A stretch of 64,000 bases of DNA from Pseudomonadales bacterium (GCA_963921285.3 CAWUFD020000006.1:11795-75794); one strand, 5' to 3'. Numbered from the stretch's first letter, positions 14,454 to 37,345 are shown. Made by a program: numbers and translations. Notes: generated from the sequence alone by a model not told the origin.

Positions 14454-15224
14454 CTAGTTCACAGTGTTTGAATATGGTTCATTTTGAATCTCAGGCAGCA
14501 ATGTCGGATCCTTCGAAAGATACAATTCCGCAAGGACCCAATCCTCTGGACGGTTTATGTCGAACCCTTCCAAACCTTCAGACACAAATGGGATTATTGA
14601 CTGGCCAGCAATACTTCTGTGATCTGAAACTACCGAACATTTGGCTATCTCCAGACTTGCATTCTGCTCGTAAACTTCTGGAAGTGCAGCGTATTGGCTA
14701 CTATGCCAAGGCGTTCCGTTGTTCGAGAAAGGCAGTAACGGAACCATTCGATCACCGTTGATGACCCACATTTTCCCGGGATGCTGATTACATGGTTCTA
14801 CCGCTCTGATAGAGTCCGCCGCGGTATCAACGCGGATGACATCCCACGCCCGACATATGGCTGCAGGTAATCTGAATGGACTTGTGGGTCTCAAGATACT
14901 GAAATAGTCAACGCTTCTGTTTTCTTCCTCTAAAAACGAGAGCATCTGCTGTACCCACTCGATATCCGGAGAAGAGTCACCAGAGATATCAGGCGATCGA
15001 AGAAATGGCACCTCCGCGCCATAGTACTTGGCGATATCTGCGTACAACGGACTATCAGTCGCACAGATCACCGACTCAAACACCGCGCTTTGTAAAGCGC
15101 CCTGAATTGTATAGGCCAACAAGGGGTGTCCGTTCAACAATTTGATGTTTTTGTCAGGAACTCGTTTTGATCCCGATCTGGCCGGTACAAAAGCAACTAC
15201 CCTAGGGTCGAGAGTGTCCATCAC
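14454..15224 (-). CDS. Acylneuraminate/ulosonate cytidylyltransferase (CMP-NulO synthetase family)
   Basis: AFVPARSGSKRVPDKNIKLLNGHPLLAYTI is the CMP-NeuAc/CMP-Kdo synthetase N-terminal signature. The ATG at 15221-15219 overlaps the ALDH stop by 1 nt. The track start at 15224 is a GTG. Confidence 0.8.
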   Translation of the reverse strand: MMDTLDPRVVAFVPARSGSKRVPDKNIKLLNGHPLLAYTIQGALQSAVFESVICATDSPLYADIAKYYGAEVPFLRSPDISGDSSPDIEWVQQMLSFLEEENRSVDYFSILRPTSPFRLPAAICRAWDVIRVDTAADSIRAVEPCNQHPGKMWVINGDRMVPLLPFSNNGTPWHSSQYAALPEVYEQNASLEIAKCSVVSDHRSIAGQSIIPFVSEGLEGFDINRPEDWVLAELYLSKDPTLLPEIQNEPYSNTVN

Positions 15225-16681
15225 AAACTATCCCGTACCAGGATTGATATGTTCTTCAGTTCGGAATAAACGTCCAAGGCCTCTAACCCAGGTTCTCGCG
15301 TTCCGTTCCCTGAGCCGCCCACGCCGCCAAACGGCATATGAGGTTCGCTACCGTAGGTCCCAAAATTCACGTTGGCAACGCCCGCACGTACGCCATGGCA
15401 AAAAGCCATCGCCCTATCAATATTCTGCGTATGTATCGCAGCCGTCAGTCCGTAATCCGAATCGTTTACAGCCATCATCGCTTCATCAAAAGACCTGACG
15501 GCGTGGATGGTAGCTACAGGTCCGAATAGCTCTGTTGAATTGATTGTGGACTCCCTGGTCAGGCCCTCAATCAAGGTGGGTTGTACATAGTATCCAGACA
15601 GGTCGGACATTGCCGAAGTATCACTCCCCCCACACAGGACAACAGCCCCTGCGTTTTCCGCCTGTTCGAGCAATCCAAGGATTCTCTCCTGTTGTCTCTT
15701 GTTGATGACGGGACCTAAATCAGCGCCTCTGTGCGTGCCCAGAACAAGCGACTGCGCTTTTTTCACCAGTTTTTCGACAAACTCCTCGTAGACCGAATCA
15801 AACACAGTGAATCTACTGGCCGAAGCACATCGCTGACCAGCATTACTGAATGCTGACAATGATGCCCAATGCACGGCATTGTCTATGTCAGCATCATCAC
15901 ATACGAGAAATGGATTTTTGCCACCAAGTTCGAGTGATATTCTGGCGAGTCGCCTTCCAGCCACCTCAGCAATTTCTCGGCCTACCGAGGTCGAACCGGT
16001 GAAACTGATGACTGCGACTCTATCATCCACAACAAGTTCCCTGCCTGCCCTGTCACCCTGACCATGGATCACATTGAAAACACCGTCAGGTAAGCCAGCT
16101 TTCTGGAACAGACTACCCATGAGTGAACCCAGCGATGGGGCATCTTCAGATGCTTTTAGGATAGTTGAGTTACCGCAGATTAATGCAGGAAATGTTTTCC
16201 AGGCAATGTTGGCGATCGGCGTGTTTGCAGGAACAATCAGGGCAGCCACGCCTCTTGGCTCTCGGACACTCTGTACCCGTTTACCGGACATGGAGGACGT
16301 CAAGGTCCTGCCAAATAGCCTGCTCCCTTCCCCAGCGAAGTATTCAGCTTGAGCAATTGCGGCTCGAACTTCGCCTTCTGCGTCCTGAGGAGGTTTGCCG
16401 GTTTCACGAGCAACACACTCACTTAGTTCATCGACGCGCACCTTCATTTCTGCTGCGATCTCGAAAAGAATCTGTCCTCTTTCTACTGGCGTTGTCGCTG
16501 CCCAACCGGGAAACGCTCTGACCGCTACGCTGATAGCGTGATCAACATCCTGCTTCGTCGAATTGTAAATCAGACTTTGGAGCGCACCTGTATGGGGATC
16601 GTACTTCTCTAAATGATCCCCCTGCGTCGCTGACTCTTTGCCTTCAATCCAATTAGCAATGGTTTGATGATTCTCAGACAT
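15221..16681 (-). CDS. NAD(P)-dependent aldehyde dehydrogenase
   Basis: Motifs ELGGKNP and the catalytic Cys FSNAGQRCASASR. 486 aa. Confidence 0.9.
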   Translation of the reverse strand: MSENHQTIANWIEGKESATQGDHLEKYDPHTGALQSLIYNSTKQDVDHAISVAVRAFPGWAATTPVERGQILFEIAAEMKVRVDELSECVARETGKPPQDAEGEVRAAIAQAEYFAGEGSRLFGRTLTSSMSGKRVQSVREPRGVAALIVPANTPIANIAWKTFPALICGNSTILKASEDAPSLGSLMGSLFQKAGLPDGVFNVIHGQGDRAGRELVVDDRVAVISFTGSTSVGREIAEVAGRRLARISLELGGKNPFLVCDDADIDNAVHWASLSAFSNAGQRCASASRFTVFDSVYEEFVEKLVKKAQSLVLGTHRGADLGPVINKRQQERILGLLEQAENAGAVVLCGGSDTSAMSDLSGYYVQPTLIEGLTRESTINSTELFGPVATIHAVRSFDEAMMAVNDSDYGLTAAIHTQNIDRAMAFCHGVRAGVANVNFGTYGSEPHMPFGGVGGSGNGTREPGLEALDVYSELKNISILVRDSL

Positions 16682-16690
16682 GACTCAGAT

Positions 16691-17518
16691 TCAAATCGCG
16701 GTCCAACCGCCATCGATGACAAGGTTGGAACCAGTCATATACGCAGAAGATTCACTGGCCAGGAATAGCAACGCACCATTGTAGTCAGTTTCATTCGCCA
16801 TCCTCCCTATAGGGATCCTTTTGTTGTAAGCATCCAGAAAATCATCATCCTGATTGTTATAGACTCCAGCTATCGTAAGTGTATTTACTCGTACCCCGTC
16901 CCTGGCCCAATAGGTAGCAAGATATTTCGTCAAATTCAGAATTCCGGATTTTGATGCGGAATACGCAACAGGCTTAAAAAAAACTTCGCCTTTGTCTCTT
17001 CGGTACTGATAAATTGACTGATCAGGCGAGACCAAACCGTAAATCGAAGCAACATTCACTATCGATCCACTATTTCTAGCTGCCATCGATTTTCCATAAA
17101 CCTGGCAGGCCAGAAACACACCCTTAAGATTGACCGTCATCACCCTATCCCAGGATTCTTCAGGATAGTCCTCAAAATAACCAACTTCCTCTGCCGGTGC
17201 ATCAGGCGGCGAGTCTATACCTGCGTTGTTAATCAAGACGTCTGGCGAACCCAGTGCTGTTTCGACCTGCAGCAGTGAATTACTCAGAGAAGTCTTGCTG
17301 GTAACGTCTGCACGGCAGAAAATGAACTGGTTATCGTACTTTTCCCTGAGTCTTGTTGATCGTTCCGATTCACCTAGGTCCAATCCTGCTACGAGAGCAC
17401 CATGTTCGAGAAAGCAGTCTGCATAAACAGCCCCCATCTGGCCACTTACACCAGTGATTACGATGACCTTGTCTTGAATCGAAAACACGTTATCTACCCC
17501 TGTGATCGAGCCAAACAA
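16691..17518 (-). CDS. Short-chain dehydrogenase/reductase (SDR)
   Basis: Motifs ITGVSGQMG, NNAG and YSASKSG (YxxxK). An alternative GTG start at 17488 has AGGGG 9 nt upstream and would remove the 25-nt overlap with the phosphatase gene. Confidence 0.85.
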   Translation of the reverse strand: MFGSITGVDNVFSIQDKVIVITGVSGQMGAVYADCFLEHGALVAGLDLGESERSTRLREKYDNQFIFCRADVTSKTSLSNSLLQVETALGSPDVLINNAGIDSPPDAPAEEVGYFEDYPEESWDRVMTVNLKGVFLACQVYGKSMAARNSGSIVNVASIYGLVSPDQSIYQYRRDKGEVFFKPVAYSASKSGILNLTKYLATYWARDGVRVNTLTIAGVYNNQDDDFLDAYNKRIPIGRMANETDYNGALLFLASESSAYMTGSNLVIDGGWTAI

Positions 17519-18009
17519 ATAAGATCACACAACTCTCTGACGGCCCCATAGCCCCCCTGTCTGGCCGTAATATATTCCACGTGTGGATGAACCTCTGGGT
17601 AGGCATCTGCAACTGCAACTGGTACCCCAACCAGTTCAAAAGCAGGAATATCGTTGATGTCATTTCCTACGAACATGACGCGATCACTCGGGGTGTCGCA
17701 AACAGACATGATCTCCTTCAGTGTCTCAGCCTTGTCGTGCGCACCCTGCCAACAATCAATATTCAATTTCTTACACCGGACCGAAACTACTTTGTTCTGT
17801 TCGGTGGAAAGTACGGCGGTCTTCAGGCCAAGCTTGTGAATTCTGGAAATTCCCAAGCCATCACTACGCCAACATCGAACCGACTCTTCTCCGGTTTCGG
17901 ACACATACACTGAGTTGTCTGTAAAAACCCCGTCGAAGTCAAAAACTATCAGTTCGAGGCCACGAAGGAGATCAGCAGGTATACTATTTTCTCTGATGTT
18001 GGAAGGCAC
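17494..18009 (-). CDS. HAD-IIIA (C0) phosphatase, KdsC / NulO-9-phosphate phosphatase type
   Basis: Motifs FDFDGVFTDN (DxDGxxTD) and VGNDINDIP (GDxxND). 171 aa, the typical KdsC size. Confidence 0.8.
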   Translation of the reverse strand: MPSNIRENSIPADLLRGLELIVFDFDGVFTDNSVYVSETGEESVRCWRSDGLGISRIHKLGLKTAVLSTEQNKVVSVRCKKLNIDCWQGAHDKAETLKEIMSVCDTPSDRVMFVGNDINDIPAFELVGVPVAVADAYPEVHPHVEYITARQGGYGAVRELCDLICLARSQG

Positions 18010-18042
18010 TTGCGGATTCGTTGTCAGTTGTTCGGGATCCGT

Positions 18043-19071
18043 TCAATCCAGCAAATCTAGAGTAATGGCTTCACCAACTTCAATATCGCGTTTCGCAGTC
18101 TTTCCAATCACAAGGTTTGAATCTCTGACTGGCAGGATCTGGTCTTTGAAAATTCTGCCCGACAACATGCGCGAAGATACCACTTCACCTTTTCCAATTT
18201 TGGTCGACGCTATCAGGGACTTTCCAAGCTTCTTGAAAACCATTTCCGAGCCTAACTCTTCTGGCGGCTTCGGATTCATCATGTGGGTTACCCTTCGAAT
18301 ATCCCGGCAGAATTTTCTGAACCCATCAGGCTCAAGCGAAAAGCTGTGATCAGTTCCTCGCCACGAGCGATTAAAGGTGACATGCTTTTCAAACACTCTA
18401 GCTCCTTTGGTGTAAGCGATAGGTCCTGACAATGTGCCATTAAAATGATCAGACAACCCAACAACATAGTCCGGGTATCGCTCAGCCAGCACCTCGATGT
18501 TATCGAGACCAAGTCTGTTGTATTCACAAGGGTATTCAGAAACACAATGGAGTATCGCCAGCTCACTTGGGAATTTGGCGATCGTCTCTACACTTGACGC
18601 AATCTGATCAGATTTTCCGCCACCAACGCTGATAACGGTAGGGACGTTAGACTCAGCAATTCGCTCTATGAGTGGCAAGTTGCCAAGATCAAAAGACGCA
18701 ATCTTCAGCACGTCAACGCCAGTATCCAACAGCAATTGCAGGCTGGGTTCATCAAAAGGCGTTGACATGAATTTAACACCGAGTTTATGGCAATCATCCC
18801 TCAAGGCAGGTAACCATTCCGGCTTTAGCTCAAGCATCTCCCGGTGCGCGCCATAGGTCTCCGCAAAGGCATTCTCACTCTCATACGACGCATTGTATGA
18901 AAAATCGTCGAACAGGTATTTGTTACATCGCGTCTGGAACTTAATTGCATCCGCACCAAGGCTCGCGAACACTTTTATGTATTCCCTCGCGGTATCCAGG
19001 TCACCTTGATGGTTTTGACCTACTTCCGCGATTATAAAAACATCATCAACAAGTTCGGATTTCTTGAACAA
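18043..19071 (-). CDS. NeuB-family PEP-condensing synthase of the phosphate-dependent (NANS / Kdn-9-P synthase-like) type, with a C-terminal SAF domain
   Basis: FIIAEVGQNHQGDLDTAREYI..GADAIKFQ, TYGAHREMLE, DHSFSLEPDGF and KLGKSLIASTKIGKGE parallel human NANS as I recall it. TTG start at 19071. Confidence 0.8.
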   Translation of the reverse strand: MFKKSELVDDVFIIAEVGQNHQGDLDTAREYIKVFASLGADAIKFQTRCNKYLFDDFSYNASYESENAFAETYGAHREMLELKPEWLPALRDDCHKLGVKFMSTPFDEPSLQLLLDTGVDVLKIASFDLGNLPLIERIAESNVPTVISVGGGKSDQIASSVETIAKFPSELAILHCVSEYPCEYNRLGLDNIEVLAERYPDYVVGLSDHFNGTLSGPIAYTKGARVFEKHVTFNRSWRGTDHSFSLEPDGFRKFCRDIRRVTHMMNPKPPEELGSEMVFKKLGKSLIASTKIGKGEVVSSRMLSGRIFKDQILPVRDSNLVIGKTAKRDIEVGEAITLDLLD

Positions 19072-20245: not shown

Positions 20246-20953
20246 TTGCTCATGGCAATACAGAAGAACATAAACACAAACGCAAAACTCTGGGGCGCAC
20301 TCTACGGCGAAGGCTCACTCAGCCTAGGCTACCCCGACGAAAATCTCGTCCGCCTCTTCAAACGCCCAGAACCAGGCGTCCCTAACTCACCCGCTCGCGT
20401 CCTCGACCACGGTTTCGGTTCCGGCAACAACGCCCTCTTCATGGCCCTCGAAGGCTACGAGGTCCACGGCGCAGAAGTTAGCCAGGCATCAGTTGATTCC
20501 GCCAACGACCTGTTCCAGAAGGCAAATCTTTCCGGAGACTTCAAACTCATTGATGCGTTACACCTAGATTACGAAGACAATTTTTTCGACATGGTCGTGT
20601 CCTGGAACTGTATGCACTACAACGGCACGCAGGAAGCTGTTGAGACGGTAAGAGATGAACTCCTTCGGATATTAAAACCGGGAGGAACTCTCCTTCTTTC
20701 CACCATCTCAAGAAAGCACAGTCTGTGTTATGGAGCGGATATCCTGACCAACGGTCAGATTCGCGTACCAGAGGATTATCGCTTTGATAACAGAAAGGGC
20801 CTGACGCTGTTCGTCCCCTACTCCAGGGATCATTTCATGGAGATCTACGCTAAAGGCTTCGAAGACGCAAAATACGGCTGGCTTGATGATTTTCTTTTTG
20901 TTGAGGACAAACCTTACGGCTGCCACCTACTGCACGCACGCAAACCCAAATAA
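20246..20953 (+). CDS. Class I SAM-dependent methyltransferase
   Basis: Motif VLDHGFGSGNNALFMALEGYEVHGAEVS (motif I plus acidic loop). TTG at 20246, or ATG at 20252. Confidence 0.75.
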   Translation: MLMAIQKNINTNAKLWGALYGEGSLSLGYPDENLVRLFKRPEPGVPNSPARVLDHGFGSGNNALFMALEGYEVHGAEVSQASVDSANDLFQKANLSGDFKLIDALHLDYEDNFFDMVVSWNCMHYNGTQEAVETVRDELLRILKPGGTLLLSTISRKHSLCYGADILTNGQIRVPEDYRFDNRKGLTLFVPYSRDHFMEIYAKGFEDAKYGWLDDFLFVEDKPYGCHLLHARKPK

Positions 20954-21679
20954 CTAGCGACGTTGCCTCGCGAGCACAAACGCTTCTGCCGCATCAAACC
21001 CAACGCTGTGCCCTCGATGGAGCGCAAGACTCCTCAGGTGCTCATAGCTCCGCGAGTGCGGTGCGGGTCGCATTTCTTCCGCGTAAGCTTCCAGCGCCTT
21101 CATTTTCGTTTCGAGGTAGCCCGTTATGTCCTCAAACACGTTAGGGGAAAAAACTTCCGCACCAGGCAGTGACCACTCACTCGACGATATAACCTCAAAG
21201 AAGTAAATCTCGTTAACGCTTGAACCAGGCAGCGGCCTGCAGGCAGTCATCACTGCCTCACAGGTCAGACGGTGGTCGACATTCAAATCCCCGGGATGAT
21301 GTGTGTAGACGACAGACGGTAGTATCTCAGCTAGCTTCTGTTCAATCCTCTGGATCACATCCAGAAGCGGAACACTGTCCAGCTTGTTATCTGGGAAGCC
21401 CAGATGGCTGATGCTGGAAACACTCAGGATCTCGGCTGCTGAATCACAGGCTCGCTGCCGCTGATTCGAAGCACTCGCAGCATCACCACCCCTGGCACCC
21501 ACGCCGTCGGCAACAAACAGAAGGTGAACTTCATCACCTTCCGCAACTCTCTTTGCAATGGTTCCTCCACAACCCAAAGCTTCATCATCGGGGTGAGCTG
21601 CAACAACAAGTATCGTGTTCATTTCATCAATTTCGTCATTCGTTGCCTGAAGGGAGCTGATACCCGTCATCCCATTCAT
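20954..21679 (-). CDS. PIG-L / LmbE-family N-deacetylase
   Basis: Motif ILVVAAHPDDEALGCGGTIAK. The likely start is MNTILVV at 21622, which removes the overlap with the upstream gene. Confidence 0.85.
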   Translation of the reverse strand: MNGMTGISSLQATNDEIDEMNTILVVAAHPDDEALGCGGTIAKRVAEGDEVHLLFVADGVGARGGDAASASNQRQRACDSAAEILSVSSISHLGFPDNKLDSVPLLDVIQRIEQKLAEILPSVVYTHHPGDLNVDHRLTCEAVMTACRPLPGSSVNEIYFFEVISSSEWSLPGAEVFSPNVFEDITGYLETKMKALEAYAEEMRPAPHSRSYEHLRSLALHRGHSVGFDAAEAFVLARQRR

Positions 21680-22487
21680 CGATGTCTGAGCGTCGTGTTA
21701 CCCGTGTAAATTCGTCTTTTGGTGCCCGTGACCTGAACCCCATGATCTCCTTTTGTCGGTCTGTCAGCTTCGATACCAGTTCAGCGGGTGTGTTCCTGGT
21801 GAGGTCAAAGGATGGTTTAACAAACCAGCGGGAGTAGGTGCCTATGATGATCCAGCGTTCTTCCTCTGAATACTTAGGACCACTACCGTGCCACACAGAG
21901 CCATCCACCACAGCAAGGCTGCCTGCAGGGCATTCCAACGTTACTTCATCAGGATAAACGGTATCAGGCTCGGCGAACGCAGCTTGATGGTGCGATCGCG
22001 GTACAACCCTCGTAGCACCGTTACGCGGGCCGAACTCATCCAGCACCCAGAAGAATTGAAGCACGAGGGGGTGACCGGTCCCAGGCAGCCTTGAATCAAT
22101 ATGTAATTGCTGGGCCTCGCACTCTCCCACAAGACCGCGCGCCTGGGTCTGTTGAATCTGCCACGGTTCCTGGTCCAGGTAAGAACCCGCACGCAACAGG
22201 TCATCGCAAACTGTGATCACGTTCTCGTCAAAAATCAGGGCGAGAAAATCGTCACTCTTGTTATGAAGGTTGTAGATGAGTTTCACGCCACTGTCGCCAT
22301 GAAAGTTACCTACCCTCGCGGAAGAAACATAGTGCCGGGCGTATCGCTCGTAGCTGTCTTTGCAAAGCGTCCTGTAATGAGCTGCTGCGTCACTCGTCAG
22401 CACATTCTCAAAGACGGTATACCCGACTTCCCGAACCTCGGCGATACCACGTTCAATGCACTCTTTTTCGATTGTTCGCGCCTTCAC
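21636..22487 (-). CDS. Phytanoyl-CoA dioxygenase (PhyH)-family Fe(II)/2-oxoglutarate oxygenase
   Basis: HxD in QLHIDS, NGATRVVPRSH, and the distal His in SVWHGSG. Confidence 0.8.
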   Translation of the reverse strand: MKARTIEKECIERGIAEVREVGYTVFENVLTSDAAAHYRTLCKDSYERYARHYVSSARVGNFHGDSGVKLIYNLHNKSDDFLALIFDENVITVCDDLLRAGSYLDQEPWQIQQTQARGLVGECEAQQLHIDSRLPGTGHPLVLQFFWVLDEFGPRNGATRVVPRSHHQAAFAEPDTVYPDEVTLECPAGSLAVVDGSVWHGSGPKYSEEERWIIIGTYSRWFVKPSFDLTRNTPAELVSKLTDRQKEIMGFRSRAPKDEFTRVTRRSDIDEWDDGYQLPSGNE

Positions 22488-23377
22488 CCGGCGACGCCTC
22501 CTTTCACGAACACCGCCGTGATGAGCCGACCAAGACCAACGCCCAGCATGCTGCGATAAAACTCGATCAGATCATCTGTGTCCTGCCTGGCCATCATCAA
22601 CTCAAAGGCAATGCGTGCTCGATGCGCGTTTTTCCCGACCGAAGGGTCCAGTGCATAGTTTGATGTTTCGTTGAACAAGTAGAGATCAATTGGAAAATCA
22701 GCAATCGCATCCACCATCTCCCATCCACAGCTCATGCCGAGTTGTTGCAGACCTGACTTGTTAAAGTACGACAGGTGTTCGGGTGGACACTCCCAGTAGT
22801 TACCTTTTGCAAGACCCCGATCACTGCATTCCTTCTGGATTGCAGAGTAGTCATTGGGCACCTCGACCATCAGCACTGAATCGTCGGCAGCAAGCTTGAA
22901 GAGGTTTTTAAGCAATAGATCCGGCGTTGGCGAGTGCTCAAGCACATTATCAAGCCACATCACGTCATACTTCTCACCCGCTGATACCAGCCGTTCAATC
23001 GCGGCGTCAGGATGGTCCTGGATCAACTTGTCCGCCAACTGCGGGTTGTGCTGCCGTACCGCGTAGTCGCTGTAATCGATGCCGGTCGGGATCGCACCTT
23101 CTTTTTCCAGGTGCGCAAGCGTCCAACCTTCCCCGACACCCACCTCGAGGACACGTTTACCGGCAAACTCGTCCTGTATGGTCTTTTTCAACAGGGCAAC
23201 CTTGCGTTCGATAATGCGTTGCAGGTAGGCCCGCTCCTCTTCGTCGTACTCGTGCGAATATCGCAAATCCGACTGGAAATACTTCTCCTGGTAAAAGCGA
23301 TCGAGCACCTCCTGGTCTGGCTTAGGGTCGACCTCGTAGTAGCCAAACTGATTTTTTACGATGTTGTATTCAACCAA
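22484..23377 (-). CDS. Class I SAM-dependent methyltransferase
   Basis: Motif VLEVGVGEGWTLAHLEKEGAIPTGIDYS. A 4-nt overlap links it to the downstream gene. Confidence 0.75.
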   Translation of the reverse strand: MVEYNIVKNQFGYYEVDPKPDQEVLDRFYQEKYFQSDLRYSHEYDEEERAYLQRIIERKVALLKKTIQDEFAGKRVLEVGVGEGWTLAHLEKEGAIPTGIDYSDYAVRQHNPQLADKLIQDHPDAAIERLVSAGEKYDVMWLDNVLEHSPTPDLLLKNLFKLAADDSVLMVEVPNDYSAIQKECSDRGLAKGNYWECPPEHLSYFNKSGLQQLGMSCGWEMVDAIADFPIDLYLFNETSNYALDPSVGKNAHRARIAFELMMARQDTDDLIEFYRSMLGVGLGRLITAVFVKGGVAG

Positions 23378-23412
23378 CCGACTGTCCTGCCGTTAACGTC
23401 ATCTGCATTATA

Positions 23413-24102
23413 CTAGTCATCCTCAGCCCTGATCCGAACCTCGGCAATCAAATCTCCTGATTCGTCAAAACGCGCACCAGTAAATTCAAATTTAATCGCA
23501 CTCGTGTTGAAGAACGCAGGCGGATATCCATCTGCATCAAGCATTCGAATATAGTCATAGATCTCTTCCAACGTACCCAGATCGTGCAGATTCCCTTCAG
23601 CGGGTTTGCGTCGTTTGAAAACAACTGGTTCACCCGTTTGCGGCGTAGGCTCAGGCGACTCCTTGACAATCGTTTCTATCATCCCGGCAATAACATCATT
23701 GGCTCGAAAAAATATATCCCTCGCGGTACCTTCCAGCGACAGTGGTCTTTTGAGATAAACGTCTCCTGCATCAATCTCGTCGGTGGCCCGCAACGCCGTC
23801 ATTTTGGTTTCTTTCACGCCCCGCACAATGAGATTCTGGACAGGGCTGCCACCCCTGCCATAGGGCAGATCGGTTTCATGAAAGATGACACATTCAAACG
23901 TATCGATAATCGCCTGGTCTATACGATGCGACCAGTGCGGCACAAAAATGTATCTGGGTTTGAGCGCAGCCAGTCGTTCAAGCGTCAGCTCCTCGGGGGT
24001 TCGGATCGTCGTCCACGTGCCACCTACCCGTTCCTGCATCAGGTCAGCGAGCGTCGCGTTCCAGGGCTTGCCAGAAAGCACAACATAGTGCGGATCACTC
24101 AT
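23413..24102 (-). CDS. Formyltransferase-like protein (Fmt N-domain relative, the type seen in Pse/Leg loci)
   Basis: FHETDLPYGRGGSPVQNLI parallels the HPSLLPxxRG loop of formyltransferases. 229 aa. Confidence 0.6.
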   Translation of the reverse strand: MSDPHYVVLSGKPWNATLADLMQERVGGTWTTIRTPEELTLERLAALKPRYIFVPHWSHRIDQAIIDTFECVIFHETDLPYGRGGSPVQNLIVRGVKETKMTALRATDEIDAGDVYLKRPLSLEGTARDIFFRANDVIAGMIETIVKESPEPTPQTGEPVVFKRRKPAEGNLHDLGTLEEIYDYIRMLDADGYPPAFFNTSAIKFEFTGARFDESGDLIAEVRIRAEDD

Positions 24103-24817
24103 AGTTGCCCCTGATGTAGTCCCTAGTTTTTTCGAGGCCGATATTGCAGATCACATCCACAATCGAGAGGTGGCTGACAAACGCTGAAGCCCCTCGTTGT
24201 TCGTATGGCGCCGGATCGAAAGTGAAATAGTCGAGCTGGATAGGAGCGCCATCAAAAGCTTGTTCCTCTTCAAGGTATGCCCTGGAACCAGGTGCAGCGA
24301 CATAACGCTCTGCATCCAGTGCATCACAGAGCAACTTCAACTTCTCTCCCTTCCTTCCTCCAACACCCAATTCACTGGAGACCTCGATCTGCGTTGTCAC
24401 GCCAAGTGCCTCAGCGATCAATCGAATAAAGGTCATGTTCAACTCGGCAAGATTAGTGATATCACCTCCGATCACTGCATCGATAATCTCAGCAATTTCA
24501 TGACGGCAGCTTTTCTTGCCATACGCCTGCTGCAGGGTCTGCAAGTGGCGCTTACGCCATTTCTCACGATCAGCCACCACGGAATCCTTGAGCAGCTGTT
24601 CCTGGGCGTCATGGATGACGGGTACGGTCAACCAGTGCTCCTTGCCATTTAACAAAATGCGATTACGTTGGTGCCATGCATGCGGCCCTCTTCGCGTCAG
24701 TTGGACATCGTCCAGAAAAACGAACACATCCACTGCTTCGATCATGCCAAAGAAACCAGCCCACGGTAGGTAGGTTGGCTGCATGATGGCGCAGGATTTC
24801 ACTTTGCTTATTCCCAT
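24095..24817 (-). CDS. WbqC-family protein
   Basis: The N-terminus AIMQPTYLPWAGFFGMIEAVDVFVFLDDVQ is the WbqC-like signature. Function unknown. Confidence 0.75.
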   Translation of the reverse strand: MGISKVKSCAIMQPTYLPWAGFFGMIEAVDVFVFLDDVQLTRRGPHAWHQRNRILLNGKEHWLTVPVIHDAQEQLLKDSVVADREKWRKRHLQTLQQAYGKKSCRHEIAEIIDAVIGGDITNLAELNMTFIRLIAEALGVTTQIEVSSELGVGGRKGEKLKLLCDALDAERYVAAPGSRAYLEEEQAFDGAPIQLDYFTFDPAPYEQRGASAFVSHLSIVDVICNIGLEKTRDYIRGNYE

Positions 24818-24891
24818 AGTAAGTTTTACAGCTTAACGGCATAGTTTAAGTCGTCAGCGATCATGAAAGTAGTCGAGTTGGGGAGAAGAAT
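24818..24891. promoter_or_regulatory. Divergent promoter region (wbqC operon leftward, pseG operon rightward)
   Basis: Inferred only from gene geometry: a 74-bp AT-rich gap between divergent starts. GGGGAG lies 7 nt upstream of the TTG start of pseG. Confidence 0.3.
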
Positions 24892-25932
24892 TTGAAGGTT
24901 GCGATTCGAGTGGACTCATCGCAGGTCATCGGCACCGGCCACCTTGCCCGCTGCATGACATTCGCAACGCAAATCGCCCGCCATGGCGCCCAGGTGTTGT
25001 TTATCTGCAGAAACCTGCAGGGGCATGTTGCAGACCTCGTCTCCGCGAAAAGCTTTCATCTCACCCTACTGGGTGACGAACCTGTTGAGATCAAATCCCG
25101 CGTCGAATCAGACTGGCTGGCTGTACCAGTTAACCAGGATGCTGGAGAAACGACCAACGCCATAACCCATCACTTTGGCACAGCCGCAGACTGGCTGATC
25201 ACCGATCACTACAGCATCGATGCCTCGTGGCACACCTGCGGTCGCAATGCGGCAAACAAGATCATGGTCATCGACGATCTCGCCAATCGGCCTCACGATT
25301 GTGACCTTCTGCTGGATTGCAATTTTTTTGCCGAGCCTGAAAGTCGATACAGGTCACTCGTTCCTTCCCATGCAAGAATGTTGCTCGGCCCTGCTTACGC
25401 ACCGCTTCGAGAAGAATTTTTCAGCCAAAAAACCAATCCAGAGAAAAGAGTCATGCTCTATTTCGGCGGTAGCGATACAGGTGAACTCCTTGAGAAGGCG
25501 ATAAATGCCGTTGCCGCCAGCGATCTCGCAAACACCTATGAGGTCGATGTGCTGCTATCCCGTGGTTCGGGCCGCGAAGAACAAGCAGCACTGTGTACCC
25601 GCCACGGGTTTAAAGCTTATTCCAGCATCGATGATATGGCAGGACACCTGACACGAACCGAATTGGTTCTTGGTGCTGGTGGGATCAGCATCTGGGAGCG
25701 CCTGCACCTCGGCGTTAAGTCGATTCTCGTATCAATTGCGGCGAATCAGGAGCAACCTCTTAAGGAGCTGGCCTATGCTGGCTACGTGCACTACCTGGGG
25801 AAAAGCGACGAGGTTTCCGAGCAGAAGATGATTGACGCTCTCAATGCATTTATGGATGCTAGCCTCGAATTTACACCGTACGACATCAGTGCCAAACGAG
25901 ATTTTCTTTGGGAGCAGCTCCAAAGCGCTTGA
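24892..25932 (+). CDS. pseG: UDP-2,4-diacetamido-2,4,6-trideoxy-beta-L-altropyranose hydrolase
   Basis: MKVAIRVDSSQVIGTGHLARCMTFA...GAQVLFICR is the PseG N-terminal signature. TTG start. Confidence 0.8.
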   Translation: MKVAIRVDSSQVIGTGHLARCMTFATQIARHGAQVLFICRNLQGHVADLVSAKSFHLTLLGDEPVEIKSRVESDWLAVPVNQDAGETTNAITHHFGTAADWLITDHYSIDASWHTCGRNAANKIMVIDDLANRPHDCDLLLDCNFFAEPESRYRSLVPSHARMLLGPAYAPLREEFFSQKTNPEKRVMLYFGGSDTGELLEKAINAVAASDLANTYEVDVLLSRGSGREEQAALCTRHGFKAYSSIDDMAGHLTRTELVLGAGGISIWERLHLGVKSILVSIAANQEQPLKELAYAGYVHYLGKSDEVSEQKMIDALNAFMDASLEFTPYDISAKRDFLWEQLQSA

Positions 25933-26650
25933 CGCCACGCGGCGCGTATTTGGAGACACAGTCAGCTGCGTTTGTGAGACAAGTCATCTGGGGCAGGGGT
26001 TAGCCGATTACTGTTCACAACAACAGGTCACACTGACCTCCGTTGATTCACTCGCCGACCTCGACATGCTATCGCTCGAAGGTGCTGAGCTTGGGGTCAG
26101 TTGCGGCTTCGGTCTCATCTTCCCTGAACACTTCATTGCCAGATTCCCAAGCGGCATCATGAACATCCACTACGGCAAACTGCCGGATATCCGCGGTCGA
26201 CACCCTATCGCCTGGGCATTCCTTCGCAACGATAAAACCTTCTCGGTGTCGTTTCATATGGTTGATGACCAGATTGATGTCGGCAGGCTGGCTCACCAGT
26301 TTGATCTCCTCCGGGAACCCGGTGATACACCCGAATCCGTGCAAGCGCGTATCGAGGCCAGGCTCGAACCCGAACTTGCAGAGGCAGTGACCAATCTCAG
26401 GGCCGGTAACCTGACGCCTCTTACGCGAGGGCAGTACTACCCAAGCCTTGCCACCAGGTACAAATCGGTTGTCGCTGCGGACCACAGCAGCGACTTCCTG
26501 TATAACCTTGTCATCACGCAGAAAGCCCACGGTGGGGTTAAAATTGACGATCACCTGACTACCGAGTGCGTTTTTCTGCAGGCAGACCTCGACTGCAGCA
26601 ACTACAAGATCATTACCTGCCAGGACGGCATCAAACTAGGAATACGCTAA
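25832..26650 (+). CDS. Formyltransferase (Fmt/PurN-type N-domain)
   Basis: IFFGSS...NIHYGKLPDIRGRHPIAW...HMVDDQIDVG carries the Asn/His/Asp catalytic pattern. The true start is uncertain (TTG 25832, ATG 25844 or 25856, GTG 25889). All options overlap the pseG 3' end by 44-101 nt. Confidence 0.7.
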   Translation: MTLSMHLWMLASNLHRTTSVPNEIFFGSSSKALDATRRVFGDTVSCVCETSHLGQGLADYCSQQQVTLTSVDSLADLDMLSLEGAELGVSCGFGLIFPEHFIARFPSGIMNIHYGKLPDIRGRHPIAWAFLRNDKTFSVSFHMVDDQIDVGRLAHQFDLLREPGDTPESVQARIEARLEPELAEAVTNLRAGNLTPLTRGQYYPSLATRYKSVVAADHSSDFLYNLVITQKAHGGVKIDDHLTTECVFLQADLDCSNYKIITCQDGIKLGIR

Positions 26651-26652
26651 TC

Positions 26653-27705
26653 ATGAGGAACCACCTCACCATCGACGGCATCAATATTGGTCCCAACGAA
26701 CCGCCGTACATCATTGCGGAAATTTCAGCGAACCATAATGGCAGCATTGATCGCGCCATTGAGCTGATCAGGAAAGCCAAGGCCGCGGGGGCGCATGCAA
26801 TAAAACTACAGACCTACACTGCCGATACGATGACCATCGACAGCGAAGCACCCGACTTCATCCTGCCGGAAGGAAACACATGGGCAGGACAGAAACTCTA
26901 CGATCTCTATACTGACGCGGCAATGCCATGGGAATGGCATGATGCTCTCTTTGAAGAAGCGAAAAAATTGGGCATCACCGCTTTCAGTACCCCTTATGAA
27001 GAAACGGCGGTCACCTTTCTTGAAGAATTCGATGTACCCGTTTACAAAATCGCGTCGTTTGAAATGAACGACCTCCCACTTATCCGTCGCATCGCGGAGA
27101 CAGGCAGGCCCGTCATCATGTCAACGGGCATTGCCAGCCTTGAAGAGATCGACGAGGCTGTTGCGACGCTTGAAGACAACGGTTGTAAAGAACTTGTCCT
27201 GTTGCATTGTGTCAGCGGGTACCCTTCGATGCCGTCGGAGGCAAATCTCGCCACCATACCTGCTCTTGCACAGCGCTACGGATGCGCCGTTGGTCTCTCT
27301 GACCACACGCTTGGTATCGGCGTTTCGGTTGCTTCCATATCGATGGGGGCCTGCATGATCGAGAAGCATTTCACCTTACGTCGCGCAGACGGCGGGCCGG
27401 ACTCGAGTTTTTCGCTGGAACCGGAGGAACTGGCCGCATTGGTAAGTAACTGTGCCGTTGCATTTGAGGCGCAGGGAGCGCCGAACTTCAAGACGACTGA
27501 TTCCGAGCAGTACACCATGAACTATGGTCGATCACTTTATGTCGTTAATGATATCCAGTGCGGCGACACGCTCACACCCGAGAATATCCGCAGTATCAGG
27601 CCCGGATTTGGGCTCGCGCCAAAATACTATGATGAAGTGATCGGCAAGACTGCAACCCGCGATCTGAAGCGAGGCGAACCGCTCAGGCTTGAAGACCTCA
27701 GCTAA
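26653..27705 (+). CDS. pseI: Pseudaminic acid synthase
   Basis: Starts MRNHLTIDGINIGPNEPPYIIAEISANHNGSIDRAIELI..AGAHAIKLQTYTADTMT, with a C-terminal SAF domain. I start it at ATG 26653, not the track's 26566. Confidence 0.9.
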   Translation: MRNHLTIDGINIGPNEPPYIIAEISANHNGSIDRAIELIRKAKAAGAHAIKLQTYTADTMTIDSEAPDFILPEGNTWAGQKLYDLYTDAAMPWEWHDALFEEAKKLGITAFSTPYEETAVTFLEEFDVPVYKIASFEMNDLPLIRRIAETGRPVIMSTGIASLEEIDEAVATLEDNGCKELVLLHCVSGYPSMPSEANLATIPALAQRYGCAVGLSDHTLGIGVSVASISMGACMIEKHFTLRRADGGPDSSFSLEPEELAALVSNCAVAFEAQGAPNFKTTDSEQYTMNYGRSLYVVNDIQCGDTLTPENIRSIRPGFGLAPKYYDEVIGKTATRDLKRGEPLRLEDLS

Positions 27706-28870
27706 CCTCAGTCCCCAATAGCGATTCACGCAGTGCTTTCACTACCTGATCCTGTTGGTCATTAGTCATTGTCGGATACAGAGGAATGGTGATCGCCTCG
27801 GCGTAGTACTTTTCCGCGTTTGGATACTCGGCAGGTTCAAAGCCCATCTTGGAAAAGTATGGCTGGCGATAGACAGGGATGTAGTGAAGGTTGACTCCGA
27901 TGCCCAGCTCCCTCATTGATTCGAACACTGCAAGATGGGTTGTTGCGATAGACTCAAGGTCGAGGCGAATCACATAAAGATGAAACGCGGAGACGCGCGC
28001 CTCCGCTACCGCTGGTGTCTTTACAGGTAGCCCCTGCAGCAGACCATCATATCGGCTCGCCAGTTCGTTACGCCGAGCAACATACTCACTAAGCCGTTGC
28101 ATTTGACTGACACCCAGCGCTGCGTGCAGGTCAGACATGCGATAGTTGTACCCGAGATCGATCTGCTCGTAATACCAGGGCCCGTGGCTTTCCATACTCA
28201 TCACATCGGCATCACGTGTAATCCCGTGACTTCGAAGGAGCGCCAGCCTTTGTGCGAGCTGTGGGTCGTTAGTGACCGCCATGCCACCTTCCGCTGACGT
28301 GACAATCTTTACGGGATGAAAGCTGAACACAGTAACGTCACTGTATCGGCAGTTACCTACAGGCTCGCCGTTCAATTCTGCGCCGATGGCATGCGATGCG
28401 TCCTCTACAACGCGAAAACCATACTTTTCAGACAGAGCATGGATGGCCTGCATGTCACTCGCCTGCCCGCACATGTGAACAACCACGACAACCTTTGGCA
28501 GCCTATCTTCTGCTGCTGCCATTTCGAGCTTTGTTTCAAGGGCAGCCGGCGACATGTTGAACGTGCCCGGGTCAATGTCCACAAAGTCCACCTGGGCGCC
28601 GCAGTACAAACCACAATTAGCGGACGCAACGAATGTAATGGCACTCGTCCACAGCCAGTCACCTGGACCGACATCCAATGCCTGCGTGGCAATATGCAGC
28701 GCTGCGGTGCCACTGTTTACTGCTACCCCAAATTTCGCGTCAACCGCCTGGCAAACTGCTTCTTCGAACCGCGGCACCATGGGTCCTTGGGTCAGGAAGT
28801 CGGAACCCAACACCTCTACAACGGCGTCGATGTCGGCCTGGGTTATTTCCTGTTTACCATAGGAGATCAT
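27698..28870 (-). CDS. pseC: UDP-4-amino-4,6-dideoxy-N-acetyl-beta-L-altrosamine transaminase (DegT/DnrJ/EryC1 family)
   Basis: Starts MISYGKQEITQADIDAVVEVLGSDFLTQGPMVPRFE and contains FSFHPVKIVTSAEGG (PLP Lys). Confidence 0.88.
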   Translation of the reverse strand: MISYGKQEITQADIDAVVEVLGSDFLTQGPMVPRFEEAVCQAVDAKFGVAVNSGTAALHIATQALDVGPGDWLWTSAITFVASANCGLYCGAQVDFVDIDPGTFNMSPAALETKLEMAAAEDRLPKVVVVVHMCGQASDMQAIHALSEKYGFRVVEDASHAIGAELNGEPVGNCRYSDVTVFSFHPVKIVTSAEGGMAVTNDPQLAQRLALLRSHGITRDADVMSMESHGPWYYEQIDLGYNYRMSDLHAALGVSQMQRLSEYVARRNELASRYDGLLQGLPVKTPAVAEARVSAFHLYVIRLDLESIATTHLAVFESMRELGIGVNLHYIPVYRQPYFSKMGFEPAEYPNAEKYYAEAITIPLYPTMTNDQQDQVVKALRESLLGTEVS

Positions 28871-30582
28871 GTCAACTCTCCCTGTCCGGCTGCGCCATGC
28901 TTGAGCTTCCCGAGATCAATCACTTCATCGACGCTCTCAAAAAAGCTGCTGTCGTGGGTGACAAAGATCAACAACTTACCCTTGAAGGCAGACAACAAAC
29001 GGTCAACCACATCGGTTTTGGTCTGTGGATCAAGCGCACTGGTAACTTCATCAAGAATCAACACATCAGGTTTTCGAATGAGCGCCCGTGCAAGGTTGAT
29101 GCGTTGCCGCTGGCCGCCAGAAACATTCGCTCCCCGGTAGGCCAGGCTGAAGTCCAACCCTTCCTCAAGGTCAGCCACCATCTCTGTCAGGCATGCATCT
29201 GCGAGGGCCTGGTCAATTTCTGCATTGGTGAATTCCCTGTCGAGACAGATGTTCTCTCGAATTGTCCGGTTGAATATGAGGCTATCCTGACTCACGTACA
29301 CCACGCGATCCGTCAAGGTGTTGCTCTCGAGGTCCTGAACCTGACGGCCGTTCATTGTTATCTGGCCCGTCTCCGGTGAAACGTAGTCCATGATGAGGTC
29401 CAGCAACGTCGATTTACCGGTACCCGACTCTCCGTAGATGGCGTAACTGGTGCCCGCCCGGAACGTGTAGTTAAAACCCTCAAAGATTCGATTACTTCCA
29501 TAACCGAACGAAACATTGCTGATCTTGATCTCATCTACAGCTGATTCGAGTTGAGCGCCCCCGACATCATCGCGGGGTTTACGCAAAAACGTCACAATAT
29601 TGCTGACACCCTTCAGATCTCCAATCACTTTGCCAACATAACCCGACAGCGTGCCAATCGAATGCAGCAACCTCACCAGCATCACCAGTACGGTAATCAG
29701 TAAAGCAACGTCATAGCCCTCGTCTGCGTTAAAGACATAGGCCAGCAACATGCCATAAAAAACGAGGAGCAGAACCAGTGGCACGTACTTCACCAGCGCG
29801 CCGTAAATATCGATACTGCTGTTCACACCGCAATAATCTGCCAGCGCATCATGGTATTCGTGCGTCACATAAGGGCCCAGACCAAACGCCCTGACCACTC
29901 GAAGCGAATTCAGGGAGTCCATGAACAGACTGTGAGAGCGGCGACGAAAGATCGCCTGCTGGTATCCCAGCATGAACAACCGACGGTAAACCGGCCAGAT
30001 CGCAAGCGCGATCACCGCGAAAAGACCCACTGTTGCCAGCATCACGTTCGTGGAGAAAAGCAGGATAAGCACCACGTATACGACCGACAGAAAACTGATG
30101 TTGATGATATTAAGTGCAGACAAGAGCACCTGGGATGCGAGAGAGGCCTCGTCTCCCGCCAGCGTGATGTAGTGGCCAATTTCCTTTTCTTCGATCTTCT
30201 TTATGTCTTCCCTGGTGATTTGTTCGACTGCACGGGTTGAGAGGTGAACCTGTAGTTCCTTGGCAAAGTAAACGAACGAGCTTTCCACGATGAAAAGTGA
30301 GATGAAACGAACCAAAAGTAGTGCGACGAAGATCAGAAAGAGGGATTCCCTGTCCACAGTGGTTAGATCAATGAACGCGACGGGTACCTCTGGTTGCGAG
30401 ATGACCGCCAGCACACCGATTGCTGAAAACTCCAATAAGATAGATAGCACACCGCCAAAAAGCAGCAGGTAGAGAAGCTTGTCCCGCGAGAATGCGATAC
30501 CCAGGATGTATGCCAGGTAGTCCAGTCGCACTTTCAGTTTGTCAAACTGCGTTGACGGTTCGTTGGTCGTGTCCATGGTCAA
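28867..30582 (-). CDS. ABC exporter, fused TMD-NBD half-transporter (MsbA/PglK-like)
   Basis: An N-terminal region of about 300 aa with 6 hydrophobic segments, then Walker A GESGTGKST, signature VSGGQRQR, Walker B LILDEVTSALD and H-loop VTHD. Confidence 0.85.
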   Translation of the reverse strand: MTMDTTNEPSTQFDKLKVRLDYLAYILGIAFSRDKLLYLLLFGGVLSILLEFSAIGVLAVISQPEVPVAFIDLTTVDRESLFLIFVALLLVRFISLFIVESSFVYFAKELQVHLSTRAVEQITREDIKKIEEKEIGHYITLAGDEASLASQVLLSALNIINISFLSVVYVVLILLFSTNVMLATVGLFAVIALAIWPVYRRLFMLGYQQAIFRRRSHSLFMDSLNSLRVVRAFGLGPYVTHEYHDALADYCGVNSSIDIYGALVKYVPLVLLLVFYGMLLAYVFNADEGYDVALLITVLVMLVRLLHSIGTLSGYVGKVIGDLKGVSNIVTFLRKPRDDVGGAQLESAVDEIKISNVSFGYGSNRIFEGFNYTFRAGTSYAIYGESGTGKSTLLDLIMDYVSPETGQITMNGRQVQDLESNTLTDRVVYVSQDSLIFNRTIRENICLDREFTNAEIDQALADACLTEMVADLEEGLDFSLAYRGANVSGGQRQRINLARALIRKPDVLILDEVTSALDPQTKTDVVDRLLSAFKGKLLIFVTHDSSFFESVDEVIDLGKLKHGAAGQGELT

Positions 30583-32642: not shown

Positions 32643-33857
32643 ATGCCATCTACTCCTGATGTTAGCGACGTTGGATCATGCTCCGTCTGTTATGACGAGC
32701 ATCCTGCGTTCAAAACCAGCGAACCACCCTGGCAGGTTGATCAAAGTCGGCTTGAAACCTTCGATGTCATCTACAGGGAAATCTCAACACAGCCAGTGTC
32801 TCCATCGGGTGCCAGGCAAAAACACCAGCAATTGGTGCAACTGATCGATGAAATCTTCGAGGGTCTCGAAGAGCAGGCGTCTGCCTCTCACGAAGCACTT
32901 TTCCTGAAAGAACTCTCTGCCAGAACAAAGGCGCTGCTTGAAAGAGAAACCGCTCACTACGCCGCAGTGAAACGCGAACCAGGGAGCCAGTCCCGACTCT
33001 CGCGAGATAAGCACTTCTTTATGTCACTTTCAGCCCCGGCTGTGGAAGAACTGACCGCTATTGCTGAAACAGAAGTCAGGATATTCAGGGAAAGAGCGGC
33101 GGAGGGCAAACTAGAACGTGATGACCTGAGTGCGAATGGCGGCGAATCTGTGAACAACACCGTTGCTCGATTGCAGGAAGAGTACACTGATCAAGGCGTA
33201 CTCGACGAGGTCAGCGAATACATGGGGTATCCGTTCAGGGTTGGCGGTACGGCCATTGAACTGAGCACACCTTCTGCAAACTGGTGGGGCGGGATTTTTG
33301 ATGAACTCCCGCCGCCAGATTCGCTTTATGCGCATTTTGATGAAGCTAAAGGCATACCGAAATCCATCGTCTATCTCAGTGAGGTTGACGAAAGCACCGG
33401 GCCTACCTCGTGCTACCCGGGCATCTATGAACAGCTGCCGTTAAATGCACTGCAGGACCTGATCGGCCGGATCATATTAACCCTGCATCTCAACAACGAA
33501 CTGAAACAGTATTATGACAATGTAAAAAATCGTTCGCTGATGATGTCCGGCAGGTTCCGAAACCACTTCATGCGCTTACCCGAACAGCTTCGTTTCAACA
33601 GCCATTTTGGCTGGGACGTCATTCCCGGCAGTGCGCTGGATCACACGCTCGTCCGAGCAGAACATAAGATGCTTGGGCCAGCAGGTACGGCCATTGTTTT
33701 TGACGGTGCAAAGCTGCTGCATCGTGGCGGGCTCATTACACATGGCGAGCGGATTGCCCTGCAGGTTATCTTCACGCCTCGCCCAACCTTCATCCAACGC
33801 GTCTATTCATTTGCGACGAGAAAAATCCAGGCGGTAACCGGCCATAACAATGCTTAA
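32643..33857 (+). CDS. Hypothetical protein with a C-terminal Fe(II)/2OG-oxygenase-like core
   Basis: YAHFDEAKG (HxD), then GTAIVFDGAKLLHRGG (distal His) and GERIALQVIF (Arg). The N-terminal 200 aa or so are helical and charged with no motif I recognise. Confidence 0.4.
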   Translation: MPSTPDVSDVGSCSVCYDEHPAFKTSEPPWQVDQSRLETFDVIYREISTQPVSPSGARQKHQQLVQLIDEIFEGLEEQASASHEALFLKELSARTKALLERETAHYAAVKREPGSQSRLSRDKHFFMSLSAPAVEELTAIAETEVRIFRERAAEGKLERDDLSANGGESVNNTVARLQEEYTDQGVLDEVSEYMGYPFRVGGTAIELSTPSANWWGGIFDELPPPDSLYAHFDEAKGIPKSIVYLSEVDESTGPTSCYPGIYEQLPLNALQDLIGRIILTLHLNNELKQYYDNVKNRSLMMSGRFRNHFMRLPEQLRFNSHFGWDVIPGSALDHTLVRAEHKMLGPAGTAIVFDGAKLLHRGGLITHGERIALQVIFTPRPTFIQRVYSFATRKIQAVTGHNNA

Positions 33858-37343: not shown

Positions 37344-37345
37344 AA

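Follow-up and report, generated by a model that had tools for sequence, protein, structure and literature searches.

Two putative tailoring modules that normally occur apart are interleaved beside pseI in a Pseudomonadales polysaccharide locus

We analyzed a 64,000-nt stretch of DNA from a Pseudomonadales bacterium (GCA_963921285.3 CAWUFD020000006.1:11795-75794), hereafter the window, and in it the segment at 20954-27705, which holds eight genes in two divergent operons. The rightward operon consists of pseG, a formyltransferase gene resembling pseJ, and pseI, the gene for pseudaminic acid (Pse) synthase. The leftward operon encodes, in order, a WbqC-family protein, a formyltransferase (Fmt)-like protein that we call FmtL, a class I S-adenosylmethionine (SAM) methyltransferase that we call MT23, a PhyH-family Fe(II)/2-oxoglutarate oxygenase, and a PIG-L-family deacetylase. 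An earlier note on this DNA had taken these five leftward genes for a single cassette, but they belong to two modules, each recurring separately beside pseI, that the window interleaves: FmtL with PIG-L (module A) and WbqC with the methyltransferase and the oxygenase (module B). All five genes occur together in one of 160 sampled loci (L098), where the modules are not interleaved. Judging from residue conservation, gene neighborhoods, and gene fusions, we give about an even chance to a scheme in which the PseJ-like enzyme would formylate N7, module A would de-N-acetylate and re-formylate N5, and module B would hydroxylate and methylate an intermediate at the hexose stage.

The neighborhood counts come from two sets of loci. 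One is anchored on FmtL and comprises 80 loci from species-representative genomes of many phyla, searched with the window proteins; the other is anchored on the PhyH subfamily and comprises 80 metagenome loci, 49 of which are at least 8 kb long. Each set is the best 80 of its scan and not a random sample. Open reading frames (ORFs) in the fetched loci were called from stop to stop and assigned by phmmer with the window proteins, so that distant family members are undercounted, and Fmt types were assigned by a score-based classification.

Around FmtL, a PIG-L gene is present in 77 of the 80 loci, a PseI-type synthase in 74, PseC in 63, PseB in 55, and PseG in 48. The two genes of module A are adjacent in 56 of the 77 loci that have both, most commonly in the order PseG-FmtL-PIG-L-PseI, and the same arrangement appears in precomputed Pfam neighborhoods and on a Synechococcus plasmid. 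The earlier note had assigned the whole set to Pse tailoring and had read a deacetylase and a formyltransferase together, and both views are borne out. Neither WbqC nor the PhyH subfamily was detected in any of the 80 FmtL-anchored loci, even at E <1e-3. Among the 53 loci that contain PseB, PseC, and PseI, 44 also hold a separate acyltransferase of the GNAT, left-handed-helix (LbH), or second Fmt type. The FmtL/PIG-L pair thus appears to be an addition to a complete pathway and no substitute for PseH, and we largely rejected FmtL as a PseH replacement on this ground.

The best solved relative of FmtL is a structural-genomics entry, 1ZGH (E 1.6e-57), for which we found no functional literature. 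With 6319 clusters at 90% identity (E <=1e-10), the family is a large one; its window member carries FHETDLPYGRGGSP. In 22 aligned members, His75 and Asp111 are invariant, as is a family-specific signature in which HWS...C precedes [IV]FHxTDLPxGRGGSPxQN. Two positions before the His, where comparison with Fmt (4IQF) places the catalytic Asn, all 22 members have Ile or Val. The catalytic Asn, His, and Asp that the earlier note had singled out are therefore only partly present in FmtL, which keeps the last two, whereas the PseJ-like protein has all three. FmtL also has a C-terminal domain of the Fmt-like type (PF21553). The two window proteins share 27% identity over just 62 residues.

The PIG-L protein, in which AHPDDEALGCGG is present, belongs to a subfamily that keeps the motifs AHPDDE, for metal and base, and THHxGDxNxDH, with the distal His metal ligand, in 82 sequences; A28, H29, P30, D31, D32, and E33 and H127, H128, D131, N133, D135, and H136 are each at least 90% conserved. 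Its solved relatives are TT1542, diacetylchitobiose deacetylase, and BshB, enzymes that cleave the 2-N-acetyl group off GlcNAc-type sugars. Members of the subfamily with 43-44% identity also lie in amino-sugar clusters devoid of NeuB, on Bacillus mycoides pBWB401 and on a Mycobacterium branderi plasmid, which points to a 2-N-acetyl substrate at the hexose level. PIG-L matches on Sinorhizobium pSymB were considered as part of the Pse-producing rkp-3 region and discarded, there being no pse genes in the region inspected. Editing ahead of PseI appears feasible, since Campylobacter jejuni PseI is reported to take hexoses with altered N2 and N4 acyl groups (PMC13576459).

We propose that PIG-L strips the ring N-acetyl group that stems from GlcNAc and is carried on hexose N2, later N5 in Pse, most likely at the UDP-hexose or free-hexose stage. 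FmtL would then re-acylate the freed amine, most likely with a formyl group, unless the amine stays free. A search of the literature for nonulosonic acids together with LmbE returned nothing functional. Replacement of the N-acetyl group by another N-substituent, which the earlier note had suggested, is still the best reading on offer.

A third Fmt-fold family is found in pse loci as well, in about 23 of the 80 (among them L007, L010, L012, L013, L025, L041, L044, L046, L048, L049, L051, L052, L053, L061, and L062). Its members lack the Asn, carry the motif LVVHESDLPxG[KR]G, and are either about 215-230 aa long or contained in a 580-750-aa ORF together with PseG. A plus-strand gene at 20246-20953 encodes a TehB-like class I methyltransferase (Methyltransf_25/11) and converges on the PIG-L gene with zero gap between the stop codons. 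Weak relatives of this methyltransferase occur in a few FmtL-anchored loci, for example in L007 directly after pseI.

Module B has its own distribution. The 49 longer PhyH-anchored loci include PseI in 47 cases, the methyltransferase in 42, and WbqC and PseC in 40 each, with PIG-L in just 3 and FmtL in 1. The order in the examined loci is PseG-(PseH or PseJ-like)-WbqC-methyltransferase-PhyH-PseI. Nearly all of 19 loci inspected gene by gene have a PseH-like GNAT, free or within an ORF the size of a PseG fusion, or a PseJ-like enzyme directly before WbqC; we rejected WbqC as a PseH replacement for this reason. A PseJ-like gene replaces PseH at this position in 11 of the 80 PhyH-anchored loci. 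WbqC-methyltransferase-PhyH or WbqC-PhyH-methyltransferase stands directly before pseI in Shewanella sp. ULN5 and Rheinheimera baltica flagellar glycosylation islands and in one metagenomic polysaccharide locus.

The PhyH protein contains HIDS and WHGSG, and the residues of the HxD...H iron triad (H129, D131, and H200) are invariant in 25 sequences, together with R211, the Arg that binds 2-oxoglutarate. Its best solved relatives are DhiD (8ZYB, 1.7e-23), on which we found no functional literature, and other small-molecule oxygenases. Because the match to KanJ is distant (~5e-7) and module B usually comes without a deacetylase, oxidative deamination of the KanJ kind is not favored. The translation of MT23 has SAM-binding motif I as VLEVGVGEG, followed by GIDYS with the acidic residue after strand 2. 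By these motifs it is a class I SAM methyltransferase, and it may methylate O, N, or C.

The WbqC family is very large (16349 clusters at 50% identity in a profile search), and both Pfam and the literature call it uncharacterized, offering nothing on its function. The AlphaFold2 model of the window protein is confident (pLDDT 92.9). A Foldseek search of this model against the PDB gave no significant match (best E 0.06, TM <=0.36): class I aminoacyl-tRNA synthetases and adenylation domains of the E1 type matched only weakly. A profile search of PDB sequences gave no match. Fusions are more informative: elsewhere, WbqC is joined to a GNAT, to PseG plus a GNAT, to a PseJ-type Fmt (motif NLHISLLPFNKG), and to a Methyltransf_23-type methyltransferase (P0472). 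The closest relatives examined (41-48% identity) all adjoin NeuB or PseI. These fusions and positions suggest that WbqC works at the UDP-hexose or hexose stage, next to N-acylation and UDP hydrolysis, and by association they place the methyltransferase and the oxygenase there too. WbqC would be a nucleotide-sugar-handling partner of N-acyltransferases, and module B, acting beside the PseH/PseJ and PseG steps, may add one hydroxyl and one methyl to hexose-stage intermediates, for example as a methoxy group borne by the sugar itself or by its N-acyl group.

WbqC also adjoins PIG-L in three unrelated contexts (L103, L174, and L175). The last two, on the M. branderi plasmid (764-10243) and on pBWB401 of B. 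mycoides KBAB4 (3774-14519), represent a conserved plasmid cluster without NeuB. It encodes a nucleotide-sugar dehydrogenase, two aminotransferases, a dehydratase, a FemAB-family or GNAT transferase, WbqC, PIG-L, and an MFS exporter. Its gene content resembles a pathway for an aminoacylated diamino sugar that is either secreted or placed on the surface.

The earlier note had counted two formyltransferase-like proteins toward the N-acyl exchange. Both are present, but the one between pseG and pseI is PseJ-like and would need no deacetylase. PseJ formylates the free 4-amino group of a UDP-sugar, taking the place of PseH, so a deacetylase is not needed for N7 formylation. The top PDB matches of the window protein are PseJ structures (6CI2/6CI4, E 9e-9 to 1.3e-8), by a small margin over the next matches; these include the F domain of gramicidin synthase (LgrA), which is reportedly a derivative of PseJ-like enzymes. 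The protein contains NIHYGKLPDIRGRHP and DDQID, and its Asn-x-His and Asp align with those of PseJ (mNiHygklPdirGrhP/vDdqiDvG versus iNlHisylPwnkGadP/iDsglDtG). Formyl_trans_N is its sole Pfam domain, with no Fmt-type C-terminal domain. By its closest characterized relative and its gene position, the enzyme probably formylates the 4-amino group of UDP-4-amino-4,6-dideoxy-L-AltNAc with N10-formyl-tetrahydrofolate (N10-formyl-THF), giving the future N7-formyl group. The pseG-pseJ-pseI part is an already known kind of system, and PseJ has been credited with completing the route to Pse5Ac7Fo (PMC11040635).

Two Fmt-fold genes in one pse locus are not unusual, contrary to what had been supposed: about one-quarter of the loci have two. 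The exact pairing of a PseJ-like with a 1ZGH-type protein is rarer, at 4-5 of 80 loci.

By family membership, PseB, PseC, PseG, and PseI build the Pse skeleton from UDP-GlcNAc. In the scheme that we prefer, PseB and PseC would make the 4-amino sugar, the PseJ-like enzyme would formylate N4, and PseG would release the hexose. PIG-L would next remove the N2 acetyl group and FmtL re-formylate the amine, while WbqC, the methyltransferase, and the oxygenase would add a hydroxyl and a methyl; PseI would finally condense the product with phosphoenolpyruvate. The outcome would be a Pse with non-acetyl groups on both nitrogens, for example 5,7-di-N-formyl or 5-amino-7-N-formyl, plus one extra hydroxyl or methoxy substituent.

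Several points weigh against this scheme. We found no characterized enzyme of either module and no glycan structure from a carrier. FmtL lacks the Asn of the aligned characterized N10-formyl-THF transferases, which makes its acyl donor uncertain, and in nine of the 53 complete loci no separate acyltransferase was detected, a number from which a relaxed search removed three. Pairs of WbqC and PIG-L also occur outside Pse loci. In L088, the methyltransferase-PhyH pair stands alone beside flagellin genes (8120-9963, between fliW and flagellin); neither pse genes nor wbqC lie within 9 kb of the pair, and its substrate might thus not be a sugar precursor in some organisms. A second NeuB-type pathway lies in the window, 2 kb away. 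Gene order, moreover, cannot separate "deacetylate then formylate" from "formylate then deformylate."

These points bear on how the roles might be divided differently. The CMP-nonulosonates of Candidatus Kuenenia stuttgartiensis bear a single N-formyl group and a single free amine as well as O-methyl groups (bioRxiv 10.64898/2026.04.20.719630); the cluster of this organism encodes a deacetylase and a formyltransferase, just one of each. By this example, FmtL could formylate the 4-amino group (the future N7), beside or instead of the PseJ-like enzyme, and PIG-L could leave a free, positive N5 amine. The six to nine complete loci with no other detectable N-acyltransferase would fit such a division, but most loci, the window included, already have a PseH- or PseJ-type enzyme that would make a second N7 formyltransferase redundant. 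The Kuenenia enzymes, from a preprint text without locus tags, could not be linked to the FmtL and PIG-L families, and we see a real but minor chance for this arrangement. We consider it unlikely that FmtL is no formyltransferase at all and either transfers a different acyl group or serves PIG-L as a non-catalytic partner, so that the N5 substituent is not formyl. The Ile or Val in all 22 members, the invariant signature peculiar to the family, the third Asn-less family in pse loci, and the lack of functional literature on 1ZGH would all agree with this. Yet the His and Asp are invariant, N-formyl nonulosonates exist in nature, and the Asn is also absent, in the alignment with solved relatives, from HypX, which is reported to use N10-formyl-THF.

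An order of events opposite to ours would have FmtL formylate an amine to pull the transamination forward or to make the sugar acceptable to later enzymes, and PIG-L remove the formyl group again. The ArnA formyltransferase and the ArnD deformylase are an established precedent for such transient protection, both Fmt-fold proteins count ArnA among their solved relatives, and FmtL and PIG-L are tightly coupled, often in that order. We nevertheless think it very unlikely: ArnD belongs to the polysaccharide deacetylase family and not to PIG-L, the PseC equilibrium is already driven by PseH or PseJ, and the PIG-L subfamily is also found without an Fmt partner, which argues for an N-acetyl substrate. 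It also seems distinctly unlikely that the leftward operon has as its substrate a different amino sugar of the polysaccharide, or whatever the second NeuB-type pathway (12.5-19 kb) produces. That synthase set is close by, WbqC and PIG-L pair up in amino-sugar clusters unrelated to nonulosonic acids, and the O-antigen cluster from which WbqC took its name has no nonulosonic acid, according to the Pfam description of the family. Against this, both modules, sampled independently, almost always lie beside a PseI-type synthase with PseB/PseC, the closest WbqC relatives are all next to NeuB/PseI, and the operon and pseG share a 74-bp divergent region.

The features of the region are collected in the table. 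The domains and quoted motifs of all eight genes, as given in the earlier note, were located by ORF reading and with Pfam and NCBIfam, at E-values far removed from chance. The leftward genes overlap or stand at most 35 nt apart, from wbqC to the PIG-L gene on the minus strand: the FmtL gene overlaps wbqC by 8 nt, and the PhyH gene overlaps the methyltransferase gene by 4 nt. In a consensus scan of 19-29 kb, promoter-like sites were less frequent than in shuffled sequence, and sites resembling terminators were at background level, so the scan carries no information on operon structure.

Features of the pseudaminic acid region, with positions counted from the first letter of the window
Feature	Position	Strand	Basis
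PIG-L/LmbE-family metal-dependent de-N-acetylase, last gene of the leftward operon	20954-21679	-	PF02585 1.2e-28, 100.6 bits
PhyH-family Fe(II)/2-oxoglutarate oxygenase	21636-22487	-	PhyH PF05721 1.1e-16, 62.2 bits
Class I SAM methyltransferase (MT23)	22484-23377	-	Methyltransf_23 3e-19, 69.8 bits
1ZGH-type Fmt-like protein (FmtL)	23413-24102	-	PF21553 2.9e-19, 68.9 bits; weak Formyl_trans_N 1.2e-6
WbqC-family protein, first gene of the leftward operon	24095-24817	-	PF08889 5.5e-62, 209.9 bits (cut-off 21.3)
Divergent intergenic region wbqC/pseG, 74 bp	24818-24891	.	Sequence read
PseG	24892-25932	+	TIGR03590 235.6 bits (cut-off 153.55)
PseJ-like sugar N-formyltransferase (putative)	25889-26650	+	Formyl_trans_N 7.3e-16; ORF opens at 25832, likely start GTG 25889
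PseI, pseudaminic acid synthase	26653-27705	+	TIGR03586 490.6 bits (cut-off 340.25); ORF opens at 26566, likely start ATG 26653
PseC aminotransferase	27698-28870	-	TIGR03588 549 bits (cut-off 423.5); convergent with and overlapping pseI
PseB, inverting UDP-GlcNAc 4,6-dehydratase	35029-36027	-	TIGR03589 509.8 bits (cut-off 407.75)
Accessory set: class III aminotransferase, CTP_transf_3 cytidylyltransferase, aldo-keto reductase, PseH-like GNAT	36063-39538	-	Pfam and NCBIfam matches

Taken together, the genes of the window make up a surface-polysaccharide locus. Besides glycosyltransferases and several FkbM methyltransferases, they encode an MsbA/HepA-like ABC exporter, an initiating transferase, and proteins for sulfate activation; flagellar genes are absent. 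Six of the window proteins form singleton clusters, and the nearest genome relatives are only about 50-57% identical. A weak PseH-like GNAT (38984-39538) scores 43.8 bits on the PseH model, with a cut-off of 93.1. The PseF model scores 124.1 for the gene at 14454-15224 and 27.5 for that at 37346-38128, against a cut-off of 205.7.

Near PseB, the accessory set comprises a KidO-like aldo-keto reductase, a KdsB-like CTP_transf_3 protein, and a GSA-like class III aminotransferase. Reductase and aminotransferase genes of these types are present in 21 of the 80 FmtL-anchored loci; among the longer PhyH-anchored loci, the aminotransferase occurs in 29 of 49 and the reductase in 26. The aminotransferase is often part of a 682-aa ORF that looks like a cytidylyltransferase-aminotransferase fusion, and the same reductase and aminotransferase genes have been noted in Aeromonas group I islands.

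The second ulosonic-acid set occupies 12497-19071 on the minus strand. Its NeuB-family synthase scores below both the NeuB and the PseI cut-offs. The other members are an SDR, an aldehyde dehydrogenase, a PseF-like cytidylyltransferase, a fused protein resembling transketolase, and a KdsC/YrbI-type phosphatase. The phosphatase exceeds its cut-off and hints that the route has a phosphorylated intermediate. The GC content of this set is 0.45-0.49, compared with 0.52-0.53 in the pse region. Elsewhere in the window lie five FkbM-type methyltransferase paralogues (6035-6814, 10655-12403, 33850-34791, 43554-44279, and 50777-51613), CysNC with a PAPS_reduct-domain protein (44301-48188), and a heparinase II/III-like protein (2083-3864). 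These genes suggest that what the ABC transporter at 28867-30582 exports is a polysaccharide with heavy methylation and sulfation.

Pseudaminic acids are found on flagella, capsules, and O-antigens, and their N-substituents govern recognition by antibodies and phages. The enzymes that modify nonulosonic acids are described in the literature as largely unknown (PMC11040635; PMC5378307). In particular, we found no described route for replacing the UDP-GlcNAc-derived N5-acetyl group, as in Pse5Hb7Fo of Pseudomonas aeruginosa. The FmtL/PIG-L pair is a concrete, widespread, and testable candidate for this exchange, and module B points both to further sugar chemistry common in marine bacteria and to a very large protein family without known structure or function. 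The predictions are open to direct testing, since both modules have carriers in culture: Psychromonas ossibalaenae ATCC BAA-1528, Marivirga tractuosa, Flavobacterium aquariorum, and Synechococcus sp. NIES-970 for module A, and, in flagellar islands, R. baltica and Shewanella sp. ULN5 for module B. A bolder set of claims, which we hold only tentatively and judge doubtful as a whole, is that WbqC stands for a large enzyme family of its own (more than 16000 clusters at 50% identity), with a fold without a solved relative, and works with sugar N-acyltransferases; that module B installs an undescribed modification of the Pse precursor, such as a hydroxylated and methylated N-acyl group or C9; that FmtL and PIG-L constitute the long-missing route of N5-acetyl exchange; and that the window polysaccharide carries a Pse derivative unseen in any structure.

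Neither module was found described as a conserved unit, nor were links of WbqC to PseG, PseH, or PseJ, and individual components have counterparts in known systems. The PseJ pathway to CMP-Pse5Ac7Fo in Anoxybacillus kamchatkensis (6CI2, 6CI4) likewise uses a small single-domain Formyl_trans_N enzyme encoded in a pse operon, and the Asn-His-Asp triad is common to PseJ and the window protein, although their similarity is modest (E 9e-9). A deacetylase, WbqC, an oxygenase, and a second Fmt-like protein are all missing from that pathway; in the window, moreover, a weak PseH-like GNAT is retained 12 kb away. In the Arn pathway for modification of lipid A with L-Ara4N, one sugar nitrogen is the target first of an Fmt-fold enzyme and then of an amidohydrolase, but ArnD is of the CE4 type, ArnA has the full Asn-His-Asp triad, and its formyl group is transient and placed on a pentose. 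MshB, BshB, and diacetylchitobiose deacetylase share with the window PIG-L the fold, the AHPDD motif, and the C-terminal xDH ligand, and they remove the 2-N-acetyl group of a GlcNAc-type pyranose. The window protein nevertheless scores far under the BshB and MshB cut-offs, its THHxGDxNxDH motif is subfamily-specific, and its proposed substrate, a 2,4-diamino-2,4,6-trideoxyhexose derivative, is unlike theirs.

Accessory genes within nonulosonate loci also rework and methylate N-acyl groups in Campylobacter, where PseA/PtmG and PtmH give acetimidoyl and N-methyl-acetimidoyl forms. These enzymes come from families unrelated to those of the window (PP-loop amidotransferase) and are reported to be active at the CMP-sugar stage (PMC5378307), whereas the WbqC fusions point to the UDP-hexose or hexose stage. 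For the Aeromonas group I flagellin glycosylation islands, a published description mentions genes for a deacetylase, a methyltransferase, a reductase, and an aminotransferase, with no functions assigned (PMC7874193); the context there is flagellar and not a polysaccharide as in the window, and Fmt-like, WbqC, and oxygenase genes are not mentioned for them. Formyltransferases were similarly noted in Geobacillus and Halorubrum clusters, again with no functions assigned. As for Kuenenia, its nonulosonate core is Leg-type and that of the window Pse-type, neither WbqC nor PhyH is reported in its cluster, and the link between its genes and products is correlative only. Even so, both systems place a deacetylase and formyltransferase set among nonulosonate genes, and the Kuenenia products are of the kinds that we predict here.

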